Assembly: GCA_905370345.1 (NCBI GenBank)
Contig: CAJPKE010000001.1
Coordinates: forward strand, 1-62,196
Direction: 5' to 3'
Source of the DNA: Candidatus Saccharibacteria bacterium UBA6209
Lineage (GTDB): Bacteria; Patescibacteriota; Saccharimonadia; Saccharimonadales; Saccharimonadaceae
Length of the DNA: 62,196 nt
The translations under genes and the position numbers were made by a program. Position 1 is the first letter of the stretch; each line of letters begins with the position of its first letter. Below are positions 18,119 through 23,101 of this stretch, piece after piece. The notes below the pieces were generated by a model. It ran no database searches, was not told where the DNA came from, and saw only the letters and a program-made list of their open reading frames with translations.

Positions 18119-18808
18119 TTATACTTCCACGCATTTTTCCAGGATTCCCGACATCGCGCTTTTTTCAGCTTCCGTTACCCACAAGCGATATCGTCGCTTT
18201 ATTGCTATCTGGCGCGCCACATACTGACAACGAAACGGCTTATTACTCGGCAGCCAAGTCGCCGCATCGCCATCACCTTTGGCTTGATTTGCTGGGCCGT
18301 CAACCGCCAACAGATTCAATGGATCGTTCGCCAATTTCTCTCGCTCTTCTGGAGAAATTTGCTGCGCACCCTTTTGCCAAGCATCACTCAAAGCCACGAC
18401 GTGATCAATCTGAACCTTAGAACTGGTTTTTTCACCACGCTGAAATTGAATTGTTTGACCAGTGTACGGATCGTTCAATACACCCGACAAAACTCGACAT
18501 TTTTCATCAATTTTCTCATCCGTCAAATCTCGAGCCAGAATTACTTCCCGTACAGAACAGCCGTTAATTTTGCCCCAGCCGTTGCCGAATTGCTTTCTGG
18601 AATAGCCAGTCTTTGGCGCGCGTCCTTTAACTTCTATCTTTTCCAATTCCGATTTAGCGTTCGAAGCACCAAATAATTCTCGTTGTGTTGAAGTTTGAAT
18701 TGTCTGAGGTTCGGGTTGCGAAATTCGCGAAGCCCAAACCGCCACGCCGACTATCAAAATTACCAGCGCAATCACCACTTGCCGACGTCGTATTTTATTC
18801 ACCCTCAT
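18119..18808 (-). CDS. Exported HNH nuclease, DUF1524 family
   Basis: N-terminal TM, DPYTG, VQIDHVVAL, NDPLNLLAVDGPANQAKGD, WLP. Confidence 0.85.
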   Translation of the reverse strand: MRVNKIRRRQVVIALVILIVGVAVWASRISQPEPQTIQTSTQRELFGASNAKSELEKIEVKGRAPKTGYSRKQFGNGWGKINGCSVREVILARDLTDEKIDEKCRVLSGVLNDPYTGQTIQFQRGEKTSSKVQIDHVVALSDAWQKGAQQISPEEREKLANDPLNLLAVDGPANQAKGDGDAATWLPSNKPFRCQYVARQIAIKRRYRLWVTEAEKSAMSGILEKCVEV

Positions 18809-18828: not shown

Positions 18829-21342
18829 ATGACTAAAGTTCCACGCTTACTTGACACATTCACACCAAATCATTACAACCTAACTCTCGATTTAACACGC
18901 GCCGAGGAAAAAGAATTTTCTGGTACAGTTATCATTTCTGGCGATTCCATCAGCGAATCAATTTCGCTACATTCCAAAGGCTTAACAATTCAATCAGCCA
19001 CAATCGACAATCAGCCCGCCGACGTTTCATTTGGTGAGTTTGACGAATTGAGATTATCCCAGCCGAACCTTGAAAACGGAAATCACACAATTCACATCAA
19101 TTTTTCTGGAAATATTACCGACGCAATGCACGGCTTGTATCCTTGTTATTTCACTCACGACGGCGTTAAAAAACAACTTTTTGCGACTCAATTTGAATCG
19201 CATCACGCCCGCGAAGTTTTCCCTTGCGTTGACGAACCAGCCGCCAAAGCCGAATACGATTTGACGCTAATAACTCGCCCAGGGATAACAGTTTTGGGAA
19301 ATATGCCCGTAAAATTCCAGAAAGAAAACGGCGATTCTCTCACTACAACATTTGAGAAAACACCACGAATGAGCAGCTATCTTCTGGCTTTTGTCATCGG
19401 TGAATTGCACAAAAAAACCGCCCGCACCAAATCTGGCGTCGAGGTTAACGTCTGGGCAACGCCAGCTCAGAATGAAAATACATTAGATTTTGCGTTAGAT
19501 ATAGCCACTCGTTCAATTGATTTTTATGACGAATATTTCGGCGTCAAATATCCATTGCCAAAATCCGATCACGTAGCGCTTCCCGACTTTTCGTCTGGCG
19601 CAATGGAAAACTGGGGTTTAATCACTTACCGAGAAAGTTGTTTACTAGCAGACCCAGAATTAACCCCAGAATCATCCAGGCGCTTCATCGCGACTGTGAT
19701 TGCGCACGAACTTAGCCATCAATGGTTCGGCAATTTGGTTACCATGCAGTGGTGGAATGATTTATGGCTCAACGAAAGCTTTGCCAATATGATGGAATAT
19801 GTAGCAATTGACGCACTCCAGCCAGATTGGCGCATGTGGGAAGATTTTGCCACGAATGAAGTAACGGCCGCACTCAGACGCGACAGTTTGGACGGCGTTC
19901 AATCCGTTCAAGCCGACGTCAATCATCCAGACGAAATCAGCACTTTGTTCGACCCGGCAATTGTTTACGCCAAGGGTGGACGACTGCTAGTTATGATCAG
20001 GAAGCTTATTGGCGAAGAGGCATTTCGCGCTGGACTTAAATCATATTTTGAAAAATTCGCGTATAAAAACACTGTCGGAAATGATTTATGGCAAGAATTG
20101 GAATCAGCGAGCGGTCAGCCAATTGTCAATCTAATGAACGCTTGGATTTCCCGACCTGGCCTTCCTGTCGTATCAGTTTCAAACAGTCACGACGCGGCGA
20201 TTTTAAGTCAGGAACGCTTCTTCATCGGCGAACACCGACCATCTGACGCATTATGGCCGATTCCATTATTCGCAAACCAGCTGCTTGACATAAAAATCTT
20301 GAATCAAAAAGAAACCACCGTTTCTATTGAAAAGCCATTACAATTAAACTGCGGATTAAGCGCCCACTTCGTCACCAAATATGACGAATCCACTCGCGAA
20401 TATTTATTGAAAAACATTACAGAATTGCCGACTTTGGACAAGATTTGCATTTTACAAGACGCGACGATACTCGCCCGCGCTGGATTTGAAAACTCGGCGT
20501 CACTACTTCCATTGGCATTGTCGCTAAAAACCGAAACCAACGAAAAAGTCTTCGGGATGGCGGCTGGTGCTTTGACGGAGCTACGAAAATTCGTCGATGA
20601 TAATGACGCCGCCAGAGATTCATTAAAGAAAATTTCTGGAGAATTTGCGCGCGCCACATTTGAAGATCTTGGCTGGGATGAAAAAGATGGAGAATCGGAC
20701 GACAACCGCGAGCGACGCACCACGGCTTTGAGCTTGATGATGTATAGCGAAGATGAAGAAGTTTTGGACGAGGCAAAAACGCGTTTTGATAGTAATAAAT
20801 TAGAAGACTTACCGACAGAAATTCGAGCTTTAATTATCAGCGCAAACGTAAGACATTTCGAGACGTCAGAGATGATTGAAAATCTCTTTGCCGCATATAA
20901 AAACACGCCGTCGAATGACATGCAGAATGATATTGCAATTGGACTAACTTCTACCAAAAACCCTGAAACCGCAGAAAAAATTCTTGCCAACATTAAAGAT
21001 TCCAATGTTATCCGACCGCAAGACGCCAGCCGTTGGTTTGTATATTTAATTCGCACCAGAGAAAGTCGCCAGATTGCTTGGAATTGGCTGAAAGAAAACT
21101 GGGCATGGGTCGAAGATACATTTGGAGAAGATAAAAGTTACGACGATTTCATTCGCTATGCAGCTACGGCGCTACTAACTCCTAATGAACTTAACGACTT
21201 TCGACAATTCTTTGAACCGATGGAAAATATTCCAGCCCTCGCCAGAACGATTAAGCTGGGAATTACCGAAATATCAGCACGCGTCGAGTTGATTGAGCGA
21301 GATAAGGCAAACGTGCTCTCTGCTTTGCAAACAACACTGTGA
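18829..21342 (+). CDS. pepN: M1 family aminopeptidase
   Basis: GAMENWG, HELSHQW, LWLNESFA, ERAP1-like C-terminus. Confidence 0.93.
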   Translation: MTKVPRLLDTFTPNHYNLTLDLTRAEEKEFSGTVIISGDSISESISLHSKGLTIQSATIDNQPADVSFGEFDELRLSQPNLENGNHTIHINFSGNITDAMHGLYPCYFTHDGVKKQLFATQFESHHAREVFPCVDEPAAKAEYDLTLITRPGITVLGNMPVKFQKENGDSLTTTFEKTPRMSSYLLAFVIGELHKKTARTKSGVEVNVWATPAQNENTLDFALDIATRSIDFYDEYFGVKYPLPKSDHVALPDFSSGAMENWGLITYRESCLLADPELTPESSRRFIATVIAHELSHQWFGNLVTMQWWNDLWLNESFANMMEYVAIDALQPDWRMWEDFATNEVTAALRRDSLDGVQSVQADVNHPDEISTLFDPAIVYAKGGRLLVMIRKLIGEEAFRAGLKSYFEKFAYKNTVGNDLWQELESASGQPIVNLMNAWISRPGLPVVSVSNSHDAAILSQERFFIGEHRPSDALWPIPLFANQLLDIKILNQKETTVSIEKPLQLNCGLSAHFVTKYDESTREYLLKNITELPTLDKICILQDATILARAGFENSASLLPLALSLKTETNEKVFGMAAGALTELRKFVDDNDAARDSLKKISGEFARATFEDLGWDEKDGESDDNRERRTTALSLMMYSEDEEVLDEAKTRFDSNKLEDLPTEIRALIISANVRHFETSEMIENLFAAYKNTPSNDMQNDIAIGLTSTKNPETAEKILANIKDSNVIRPQDASRWFVYLIRTRESRQIAWNWLKENWAWVEDTFGEDKSYDDFIRYAATALLTPNELNDFRQFFEPMENIPALARTIKLGITEISARVELIERDKANVLSALQTTL

Positions 21343-21359
21343 TATATTATGCCACATTT

Positions 21360-21602
21360 TTGACAAAATCTATTGACATTTTATACTATTAGTGGTATAA
21401 ATAGACACAGCTTTTGTTGACAAGTTGAGTAAATCCTTGTCCGGAAGCGCACTTTGACAAGTGAAGAGAATCTATAAGACGAAGGTGAGATTTTGCGGTA
21501 TTCTAATAAGTACCTCGAAACCTCATCTTCGATCTATGCCATCCGGGCGTTGATCAGTGTTTCCAGCACGGGCGTTCGCCCAGATGAGGAGAGAGTACTA
21601 CA
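21360..21602 (+). promoter_or_regulatory. Cassette A: sigma70-type promoter and ~195-nt structured leader
   Basis: Tandem TTGACA (21360, 21373), 17 bp, TGG-TATAAAT; hairpins 21408-21427, 21480-21531, 21540-21586; boxA-like GCACTTTGACAA 21449-21460; SD AGGAGAG 21587-21593. Confidence 0.75.
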
Positions 21603-21989
21603 ATGTCGTTTATTACCGATGAAGTCAAGGCAAAGAGGGCTGCCGACATCAATGATAGGAGGAAAATACTGGAGACACTCAGGAGAAATGAAGTCTCCCG
21701 TTTCCTCGAAGAGGGAATCCCCACACTGTGCGAGGAAGCCAGGAAAGCTGCAATCAATGAATACCTTATGAAAGGCAAGCTTCCAGACGAGATCCGTATC
21801 TATGATCATGACCGTCGAATCACCTCAGCAGTCGCAAACAACCCCGAGTGTCGTAAGGCACTCCTTAAGAAGCTCCAGAGCCTCGAAGAGAAGGTTCGTG
21901 ACGTTGAATTCAGATACACAGAATCCAACCCGTGGGTAATTACTCCCGATCCTTGCGTTGTCGTCTACTTCTCCAACAACCAGGAGTAG
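21603..21989 (+). CDS. Orphan soluble protein (cassette A)
   Basis: 128-aa ORF with own promoter and SD; no family recognised. Confidence 0.75.
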   Translation: MSFITDEVKAKRAADINDRRKILETLRRNEVSRFLEEGIPTLCEEARKAAINEYLMKGKLPDEIRIYDHDRRITSAVANNPECRKALLKKLQSLEEKVRDVEFRYTESNPWVITPDPCVVVYFSNNQE

Positions 21990-22052
21990 CAGGCAATAAC
22001 CTCGCAAACATGGCGAGTCTGTAGACTCTCCGTCAGATTCTCTCACTTGTCG

Positions 22053-22109
22053 TGTTTGCTCCATAGATGTGTATCTATGCCGATGAGTCGAAAACGACGA
22101 AAGCGAACA
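22053..22109 (+). ncRNA. Type III hammerhead ribozyme (U4C core variant)
   Basis: TGTTTGC-T-C^-CATAGA-TGTGTA-TCTATG-CCGATGA-GTCG-AAAA-CGAC-GAAA-GCGAACA: stems I, II and III all pair; core matches consensus except position 4. Confidence 0.82.
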
Positions 22110-22111
22110 AT

Positions 22112-23101
22112 TTATTCCAACACCACACATTCCTCGACTACAGGCGGATTTCCATCAACAGAAATTGCCAGCATTTGCATATCACAGCTTTCATACTGCG
22201 CATTTTTGGCAATGAACATCTCTACAGAAAAACGCATTTGCTGCTGTTTTTTATTTGTAATTGCCGCCAAGCCATCGCCGAAATTGTCATTTTTACGATA
22301 TTTGACCTCTGTAAAATATAGAACATTATCTTTTTTACTAACAATATCAATTTCGCAATACCGTGTTCGCCAATTCCGTTCTATAATCTCATGACCATCA
22401 GCGACCAACCAATCCGCCGCCGCTTGCTCACCCTTATCGCCAATTTGACGCATCGTGTCTTTTTGCTGGTTTTTAGACCTTCCATCATCAAGCGCATTCT
22501 GCGAGTTCACCTCAACATTAGCATATTTAGTCAACGGCGCAAAACTCAGCCGATGTAGCGGAGTTACACCCAGATTATCAATAGCCGCTCGGTGCTTCGC
22601 CACACCATAACCAACGTGCGAAGAAAAATCATATCCCGGATAAATATTATCCTGCTTCGCCATAAATTTATCACGAGCCACCTTAGCAATAATCGACGCC
22701 GCCGAAACGCTCGGAATCAGACCGTCGGCTTTCGCTATAATTGTTACATACTTTTCTAGCGGTGTACCCGCCAAAAAATTGACCGTCCCATCGATAATAA
22801 TCTCATCAAACGTCAAGCCGCTTTTCTGGCATTTCGCTTGAATTTCTTTGACTGCGCGCCGCGTTGCCAGCTTAAGTGCCTCGCTCATCCCTATTTCATC
22901 CAGCTCCTCAGCAGGAACCCAGCCCAACGCCCAAGCCGACGCTTGCTCGCGAATCTTCTCATTGAGCAATTCACGGCGTTTTTTAGTCAATTTTTTACTA
23001 TCATCAAGCCCTTCAATTTCAGCGCCGCCCAAAACCACCGCGCCAATCACCAACGGCCCCGCCCACGCGCCGCGCCCAACTTCATCAATCCCCAGAATCA
23101 C
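22112..23101 (-). CDS. rnhB: Ribonuclease HII fused to a YraN (UPF0102) domain
   Basis: GIDEVGRG, DSKKL, SVSAASIIAKVARD, HRLSF; C-terminal GDKGEQAA...NWR...EIDIV...EVKYR. Confidence 0.9.
   Translation of the reverse strand: MILGIDEVGRGAWAGPLVIGAVVLGGAEIEGLDDSKKLTKKRRELLNEKIREQASAWALGWVPAEELDEIGMSEALKLATRRAVKEIQAKCQKSGLTFDEIIIDGTVNFLAGTPLEKYVTIIAKADGLIPSVSAASIIAKVARDKFMAKQDNIYPGYDFSSHVGYGVAKHRAAIDNLGVTPLHRLSFAPLTKYANVEVNSQNALDDGRSKNQQKDTMRQIGDKGEQAAADWLVADGHEIIERNWRTRYCEIDIVSKKDNVLYFTEVKYRKNDNFGDGLAAITNKKQQQMRFSVEMFIAKNAQYESCDMQMLAISVDGNPPVVEECVVLE

Follow-up and report, generated by a model that had tools for sequence, protein, structure and literature searches.

Hammerhead ribozymes have long been known in bacteria. 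Bacterial hammerheads beside variable genes, natural variants of the catalytic core, and an association with RAGATH RNAs are already in print (PMC3088659, PMC11061315). In the hammerhead survey (PMC3088659), the type III hammerheads of bacteria and phages (RF00008) have a junction that opens at stem III, stems that covary, and a core that is conserved, and in all of these respects the element described here resembles them. It differs from the hammerheads of the survey in that it lies on a Saccharibacteria chromosome and not in a prophage, with no integrase, phage family, or recombinase in the neighbouring ORFs examined, and in that most copies of its family fall under the Rfam cut-off, the copy under study carries a C at core position 4 (C4), and a conserved upstream strand competes for stem III. 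The same core substitution, U4C, occurs in a natural viroid hammerhead, which, according to the survey (PMC3088659), is considerably less active in vitro but sufficient in vivo, leaving the viroid infectious. The viroid U4C is a replication ribozyme, whereas the copy described here is a 3' UTR element of a bacterial mRNA, and its core change is recurrent in at least three cassette lineages.

Two further systems invite comparison. With regard to the RAGATH RNAs (PMC11061315), a RAGATH-10 element is located here upstream of the hammerhead, and its outer stem covers a Shine-Dalgarno sequence. In sister cassettes that have a common promoter and leader, the position of the hammerhead at the 3' end is taken by intrinsic terminators, which consist of a hairpin and a U-tract; unlike these, a hammerhead cuts the RNA without releasing the polymerase, and the expected end is a 2',3'-cyclic phosphate and not a U-tail. 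A full-text search of a literature library found no description of hammerheads from Saccharibacteria or Patescibacteria, whose sequences may be present in supplementary lists of core variants, and no description of RAGATH-10.

The window, meaning the whole stretch of 62,196 nucleotides that was analysed, belongs to a genome of 689 kb in 46 contigs that is 96% complete. Its features and those of the related loci are collected in Table 1. Stem III of the hammerhead is formed by tgtttgct (22053-22060) and agcgaaca (22102-22109), comprising 8 bp including one U-G pair, and the predicted cut falls between C22061, which is position C17, and C22062. Stem I (6 bp) pairs cataga (22062-67) with tctatg (22074-79) around loop 1, tgtgta; the core ccgatga follows at 22080-86, with the deviating C4 at 22081, and leads into stem II (4 bp, gtcg/cgac, loop aaaa) and the terminal gaa (22099-22101). 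Three helices surround the junction, stems I and II being closed by loops and stem III being open, as in the hammerhead topology. The core residues C3, G5, A6, G8, A9, G12, A13, and A14 are present, position 17 is a non-G (C22061), and the A15.1-U16.1 pair is made by A22102 with U22060; only the U expected at position 4 is replaced, by C. When folded alone, the 57-mer adopts exactly the hammerhead structure (-15.9 kcal/mol, z -2.9). The elements listed in an earlier note on this DNA are all present, base for base, at the positions given there, and its type III assignment, cleavage site, loops, and U4C as the sole core deviation are borne out by the fold, the Rfam match, and an alignment of the family. 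That note makes no mention of the RAGATH-10 upstream, of the canonical paralogue, of how rare C4 is, or of the conserved helix in competition with stem III.

Table 1. Positions of the features discussed (window numbering unless a locus or contig is named).
Feature	Position	Strand	Basis
Promoter-like region	21360..21401	+	scan; block conserved in paralogous and orthologous cassettes
5' leader motif	21409..21463	+	GCUUUUGUUGACAAGUUGAG..CCUUGUCCGRAAG..CUUUGACAAG; copies in genome and congeners
Leader copies in genome	C14:16712-16766; C18:8673-8723; C20:10869-10920	-	sequence search
RAGATH-10 RNA (RF03147)	21517..21596	+	79.8 bits, above the gathering cut-off of 41.2
128-aa ORF, conserved hypothetical	21603..21989	+	homologous clusters; Saccharibacteria only as far as named
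3' UTR clamp helix (predicted)	22003..22059	+	fold, orthologue conservation, L041 comparison
Type III hammerhead ribozyme	22053-22109	+	fold, Rfam match, homology, covariation; cut site predicted
Post-hammerhead similarity	window 22110-22125; L001 1485-1499; L090 1936-1951		sequence comparison
RNase HII (rnhB) fused to YraN/UPF0102, convergent	22112..23101	-	NF000595.1, 203.4 bits against a cut-off of 167
Aminopeptidase-rnhB slot	window 21343-22111; L034 2518-3020; L035 2480-3200(-)		cassette comparison
229-aa ORF with GmrSD restriction-endonuclease C-terminal domain	18119-18808	-	E 7e-21
243-aa hydrophobic ORF ahead of the contig-14 hammerhead	L001 1593-2324	-	weak Rce1-like CAAX protease match
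Tandem hammerheads of G043 contig 13	L007 265-1556; L048 1951-2028	-	covariance-model matches

In the Rfam check proposed in the earlier note, the Hammerhead_3 model aligns with 22054-22108 end to end at 31.8 bits, with an E-value of 6.5e-4 when 6 kb was compared to all 4227 families and of 1.8e-5 per genome, but the score remains below the curated gathering cut-off of 48.5 bits that serves as the operational criterion, and a default Rfam scan of the window is silent on the hammerhead for this reason. As the viroid U4C variant is accepted as a hammerhead in the survey (PMC3088659), the copy is filed as a member of the class by descent. The segment 22053-22109 is thus a type III hammerhead by descent and fold, whereas its catalytic competence is a prediction from sequence.

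The genome contains a second hammerhead on contig 14 (G000:C14:15863-15917), which has the canonical core CUGAUGA and is identical to the window copy at 54 of 57 positions. The three differences are a C/U in stem III, U4 in place of C4, and one base of loop 2. Even this canonical paralogue scores under the Rfam cut-off, at 41.8 bits. Across 151 genomes of the same family, a search with the Rfam model yielded hammerhead matches at E <=0.01 in 54, and only 2 of the 151 have any match over the cut-off, which misses most copies in the phylum. Of the 92 family places listed, 76 were retrieved, the 16 weakest (nearly all partial matches) being excluded. In an alignment of 21 family members, 95.5% of the stem cells are paired, as compared to 29-44% in slid-partner controls, and 14 of the 17 stem pairs have changed on both sides around an invariant core. 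The observed covariation score was reached by none of 500 shuffles. The covariation of the stems among relatives, whose absence the earlier note had counted towards a decayed or chance fold, is compensatory in kind. A covariance model built from this alignment (R1) found 76 hammerheads in 80 of 86 sources, the six excluded sources duplicating or overlapping others, and, in a phylum-wide sample of 151 genomes, gave matches in 19. The family has kept both loop 1 (UGUGUA-like) and loop 2 (AAAA or GAAA), the loops whose tertiary contact gives fast cleavage in hammerheads.

With naive ORF calls of at least 40 aa, a same-strand ORF precedes 74 of the 76 hammerheads, at a median gap of 72.5 nt and with a median length of 143 aa, and the next downstream gene runs towards the hammerhead in 30 cases (convergent) and in the same direction in 43. 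Pfam matches among the 74 upstream ORFs number only 6, each confined to a single member. When 20 hammerhead loci (L005-L024) were scanned at Rfam gathering thresholds, neither RAGATH nor twister nor any other additional ribozyme family turned up. Judged by these comparisons, the hammerhead is a conserved 3' module of small and mostly unannotatable gene cassettes, in a family that is common in Saccharibacteria.

In the window, the hammerhead is the last module of a 770-bp unit between a gene for an M1 aminopeptidase (18829-21342) and rnhB. The unit consists, in order, of a strong promoter-like region, a conserved 5' leader, RAGATH-10, a 128-aa ORF, a conserved 3' UTR of 63 nt, and the hammerhead. 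The promoter-like region combines TTGACA (21360) with TATACT, amounting to 11 of 12 matches, and overlaps a second arrangement of TTGACA (21373), a 17-nt spacer, and TATAAAT. The leader, of about 55 nt, is present in four full copies in the genome (contigs C1, C14, C18, and C20) together with one partial match on C18, and in further copies in congeners, including L040, L042, L044, and L090; these copies begin where transcripts of several small-gene cassettes, unrelated to one another, are predicted to start. Its central CUUGUC is able to pair with either of two GACAAG boxes. In the leader alignment (A7), the GACAAG/CUUGUC hairpin shows wobble and compensatory changes, and the first hairpin is preserved via matched insertions (GACGAAG/CUUUGUC, GACGGAA/UUUUGUC). 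Rfam returned only a chance-level match of the leader to freshwater-1 (16.1 bits, E 9.4), and the element may represent a leader RNA or a switch of a kind not yet described.

The RAGATH-10 of the window lies 457 nt upstream of the hammerhead. Five of the 6 orthologous genome loci carry it, as does L041, which is a different RAGATH-10 cassette, and 6 of the 10 RAGATH-10 matches in the family have a same-strand hammerhead 340-482 nt downstream. The 3' arm of its outer stem (AGAUGAGG) includes the Shine-Dalgarno GAGGAG of the ORF, whose ATG is at 21603, and the 5' arm (CUCAUCUUCG) has a complement further upstream, in CGAAGGUGAG (21481-21490). In its layout, 21481-21602 (+) resembles a region of translational control made up of an anti-sequestor, a sequestor, and the Shine-Dalgarno, and such putative control by RAGATH-10 is suggested by the position of the outer stem over the Shine-Dalgarno. 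A shorter look-alike is found in two other cassettes of the genome, on contigs 20 and 18.

The 128-aa ORF had been called an orphan gene. This holds insofar as no Pfam, PHROG, or NCBIfam family was found for it, but not in the stricter sense, since it has 67 homologous protein clusters at 60-93% identity, of which the few that are named are Saccharibacteria (Candidatus Nanosynbacter, Candidatus Minimicrobia). Seventeen related loci of the ORF (6 genomes and 11 metagenome contigs) were compared, and the hammerhead is present in all 17. It lies 63-69 nt past the stop codon in the 16 loci with an intact ORF, the ORF of L091 being truncated.

The modules of the cassette are found in other combinations. 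The contig-14 hammerhead follows an unrelated, membrane-like ORF of 243 aa that has no BLASTP similarity to the window ORF, and yet the two cassettes have a common promoter, leader, and stretch before the hammerhead. The match of the 243-aa ORF to the Rce1-like CAAX protease family is weak and sub-threshold (18 bits, cut-off 22.4); proteins of this kind frequently have a role in bacteriocin immunity. Three genomes of a single genus each have their own small ORF in the aminopeptidase-rnhB (pepN|rnhB) slot, the promoter being common to two of them, and the slot is a turnover hot spot for small genes. In other genomes, the ORF cassette of the window also occupies a second slot beside a CobW-like gene, the shared DNA running from about 21356 to 22125. 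The similarity between the cassettes of these two slots extends about 16 nt past the hammerhead, into the last codons of unrelated convergent genes, which end in ..VVLE for RNase HII-YraN and in ..MMFE for the CobW-like gene, with 14 of 16 bases shared. This similarity may be due to chance, given that the rnhB gene of a congener without a hammerhead also ends in VVLE. On the upstream side, the ORF with the GmrSD domain adjoins the aminopeptidase gene. On the other side, the stop codon of rnhB occupies 22112-22114 and begins 3 nt after the ribozyme, in agreement with the earlier note. The YraN/UPF0102 nuclease-like domain comprises residues ~213-320 of the rnhB ORF, and the 329-aa length is also found in L088 and L089.

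A simple scan of the + strand from 21990 to 22400 found no U-tailed terminator-like site after the ORF, in agreement with the earlier note. Four cassettes of the genome have a common promoter and leader; two of them end in a hammerhead, and the two on contigs 20 and 18, which are without a hammerhead, end in U-tailed hairpins. Similarly, a congener cassette in the aminopeptidase-rnhB slot, with the same promoter, ends in a U-tailed terminator hairpin. The proposal that self-cleavage defines the 3' end of the mRNA is plausible in view of these sister cassettes with alternative ends, but a cruder statistical test showed that terminator-like sites are not depleted at hammerheads (13 of 76 loci, as compared to 71 of 452 for the gene ends of this genome and 39 of 400 for random windows). 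The statistical claim that hammerheads replace terminators was rejected on these counts, and the case for hammerheads as putative stand-ins for terminators is anecdotal, being drawn only from the sister cassettes. The further suggestion that cleavage cuts off read-through into rnhB does not follow, because cleavage separates the RNAs without stopping the polymerase, which continues after the RNA is severed. Among RNA data, comprising three RNA libraries and one with a guessed RNA label, all of them assembled contigs of relatives, at most 0.18 of the sampled words were recovered per run. One RNA-library contig (X8, 22013-22108) spans the predicted cut site; this is neutral as to cleavage, since contigs carry no RNA ends or strand and DNA may be present in the libraries.

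U4 sits in the CUGA U-turn of the hammerhead, a position that is highly conserved and for which natural exceptions are documented. Among the 76 family hammerheads the core reads CUGAUGA in 62, CUGACGA in 12, CUGAAGA in 1, and CCGAUGA in 1, the last being the window copy; the model used to collect these hammerheads puts C4 at a disadvantage, and the window copy was still recovered at the same threshold. In the 18 cassettes with the ORF of the window, C4 is found in 3 (the window, L089, and L098) and U4 in 15, and the other 12 core bases and all of the stems are intact in 18 of 18. The nearest relative of the window on the protein tree, L092, at 93% identity, is a U4 carrier; the protein of L089 (C4) is identical to that of L099 (U4); and L098 (C4) branches, weakly supported (81/82), as the sister of a clade with U4. 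C4 arose or segregates in at least three lineages, and none of its occurrences is on a deep branch of the tree. The pattern of C4, which is found at the tips only and is missing in the 75 other family copies, fits a mildly deleterious change. Random decay would be expected to spread and not to strike one position three times while sparing twelve; we read C4 as a recurrent, tolerated, and probably attenuating allele. In the window copy, it most likely lowers the rate of cleavage without abolishing cutting. Work on the type III CUGA turn reports that single and double mutants are poorly active, with the exception of a swap of the C3/G8 pair (PMC9901934). The window copy also has the U-G wobble in stem III, where it differs from the canonical paralogues; U4 orthologues share the wobble, indicating that it is ancestral to this type of cassette.

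The 3' UTR contains a second predicted structure that involves the ribozyme. The stretch 22003-22017 (GCAAACAUGGCGAGU) pairs with 22045-22059 (ACUUGUCGUGUUUGC) over 15 bp, forming a clamp helix that starts 14 nt past the stop codon and whose outer 7 pairs take up 22053-22059, the 5' strand of stem III. The fold of 21990-22061 has an energy of -26.9 kcal/mol (z -4.86), and the 3' UTR and clamp helix hardly vary among the orthologues, although the encoded proteins share no more than 66-93% identity. As the clamp helix is transcribed first, it could block folding of the hammerhead. With 80 nt of upstream context, the minimum-energy fold consists of the clamp helix and stems I and II, without stem III, and forcing the hammerhead in this context costs 4.8 kcal/mol (rank 14th of 76, median 1.1), differences that are within the error of the method, which ignores the loop-loop tertiary contact. 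An analogous helix of 13 bp (z -6.9) is found in L041; as read from the sequences, two of its pairs have changed on both sides relative to the window (U-A to C-G and A-U to G-C), and one base is deleted from each strand in a matched fashion. A 6-bp version is present in the canonical paralogue on contig 14. The apparent covariation of GCAAAC (window) with GCGAAC (L001) at one homologous position was rejected, as these boxes are at different positions, leaving L041 as the valid comparison.

In the family as a whole, at least 4 bases of the 5' strand of stem III are paired upstream in 21 of 76 minimum-energy folds. A perfect 6-nt upstream complement of this strand is present at 6 of 76 loci, as compared to 1 of 76 downstream and 0 of 76 for the reversed box, and the upstream complement was accordingly rejected as a family-wide feature in favour of a sub-family trait. 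Predicted cleavage products with an overhang of at most 3 nt were no commoner than in control windows (57% versus 54%), and a terminal hairpin as a general feature of these hammerheads was likewise rejected; since this family-wide test did no better than the controls, the clamp is a sub-family trait as well. The last 80 nt before the predicted cut are more stable than ORF windows (mean -29.1 versus -22.4 kcal/mol, with base composition uncontrolled). The clamp data support clamping after cleavage but would fit restraint of the ribozyme before cleavage equally well.

The reading that we favour, with reasonable though by no means full confidence, is that the 3' end of the mRNA would be formed by self-cleavage followed by refolding, more slowly in the C4 copy; the cleavage, its rate, and the clamping and protection of the end are what we infer. 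Transcription would start near 21408 and yield an mRNA bearing the leader, RAGATH-10, and the 128-aa ORF. The hammerhead would fold 63 nt past the stop codon and cut after C22061, so that read-through RNA, antisense to rnhB, would no longer be attached to the mRNA. The 5' strand of stem III, once free, could then re-pair with 22003-22009 to complete the 15-bp terminal hairpin, and the cleaved mRNA would end in this hairpin, an overhang of 2 nt, and a 2',3'-cyclic phosphate. Formation of the hairpin would release the 3' fragment and should make the end of the mRNA less accessible to 3' exonucleases. A more ambitious version, in which cleaving and then clamping form a device carried by swappable small-gene cassettes, with an upstream strand, preserved by compensatory changes, that captures the 5' strand of stem III after the cut and expels the ribozyme body, with a nearly blunt protective hairpin, and with U4C tuning cassette expression by turning down the rate of cleavage, is offered tentatively and may well claim too much.

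An unlikely alternative, but one to be taken seriously, is that the window copy is a dead or dying ribozyme, in which U4C has inactivated the core and the relic is kept by linkage, the 15-bp helix of the 3' UTR alone stabilising or processing the 3' end. The low activity of single mutants of the CUGA turn, as given in that work (PMC9901934), would be consistent with such a state, as would the restriction of C4 to the tips of the tree and to 1 of 76 family copies, the absence of stem III from the minimum-energy fold in context, and the additional U-G wobble relative to the canonical paralogues. The wobble, however, is common to the U4 orthologues and is ancestral, and a decaying ribozyme would be expected to accumulate scattered changes, not the same one three times amid otherwise intact cores and stems. 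Moreover, a natural viroid hammerhead with U4C still functions in vivo, according to the survey (PMC3088659). Quite improbable, in our estimation, is a conditional ribozyme, the 5' strand of stem III being held by the upstream helix until this is opened by a ribosome, helicase, protein, or temperature, with cleavage and the fate of the mRNA being regulated thereby. That 22053-22059 has two mutually exclusive partners, both conserved, is in keeping with this idea, as are the proximity of the helix to the stop codon and the upstream pairing of stem III strands in 21 of the 76 family folds. Nevertheless, no ligand, protein, or signal can be named for it, the predicted energies are within the error of a method that ignores tertiary contact between the loops, and refolding after cleavage, as in the reading that we favour, explains the same geometry equally well.

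It is also conceivable, though we think it very unlikely, that the 3' module acts mainly at the level of DNA, as a homology arm or recombination site for the swapping of cassettes, with RNA cleavage being incidental. The occurrence of the same ORF cassette in two slots (pepN|rnhB and beside the CobW-like gene) with DNA shared from about 21356 to 22125, the presence of the same 5' and 3' modules on different ORFs, and the different cassettes of the pepN-rnhB slot in three congeners all point in this direction. Against it, the covariation of the stems around an invariant catalytic core indicates selection on RNA and not on a DNA site, and no recombinase lies beside the cassette among the ORFs examined; in any case, the roles in RNA and DNA are not exclusive. 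As for a meaningless chance match, the score under the gathering cut-off and the sub-threshold hammerhead matches (E up to 10) that 7 of 14 control genomes also give might have suggested one, but this explanation is already refuted for practical purposes, because the paralogue is 54/57 identical, all 17 other cassettes have the ribozyme, and the stems covary strongly.

The family offers a compact and repeated natural design, in which a promoter and leader, in some cases joined by RAGATH-10, precede a small ORF with its hammerhead, and the Saccharibacteria cassettes give RAGATH-10 a defined genetic context. Natural contrasts are at hand in the U4 and C4 alleles of near-identical cassettes, in the sister cassettes that end in terminators, and in the competing helix that is conserved with the ribozyme. 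With these three contrasts, the role of a bacterial hammerhead in its mRNA becomes directly testable, in host-dependent bacteria with very small genomes. An unusual arrangement is found in the related genome G043, where at least four hammerheads follow one another in tandem on contig 13, ~600-650 nt apart. At least three of these follow an ORF of 137-169 aa, the ORF before the fourth extending past the retrieved stretch. Cleavage at such tandem hammerheads would free gene-length RNAs with 5'-OH and cyclic-phosphate ends.
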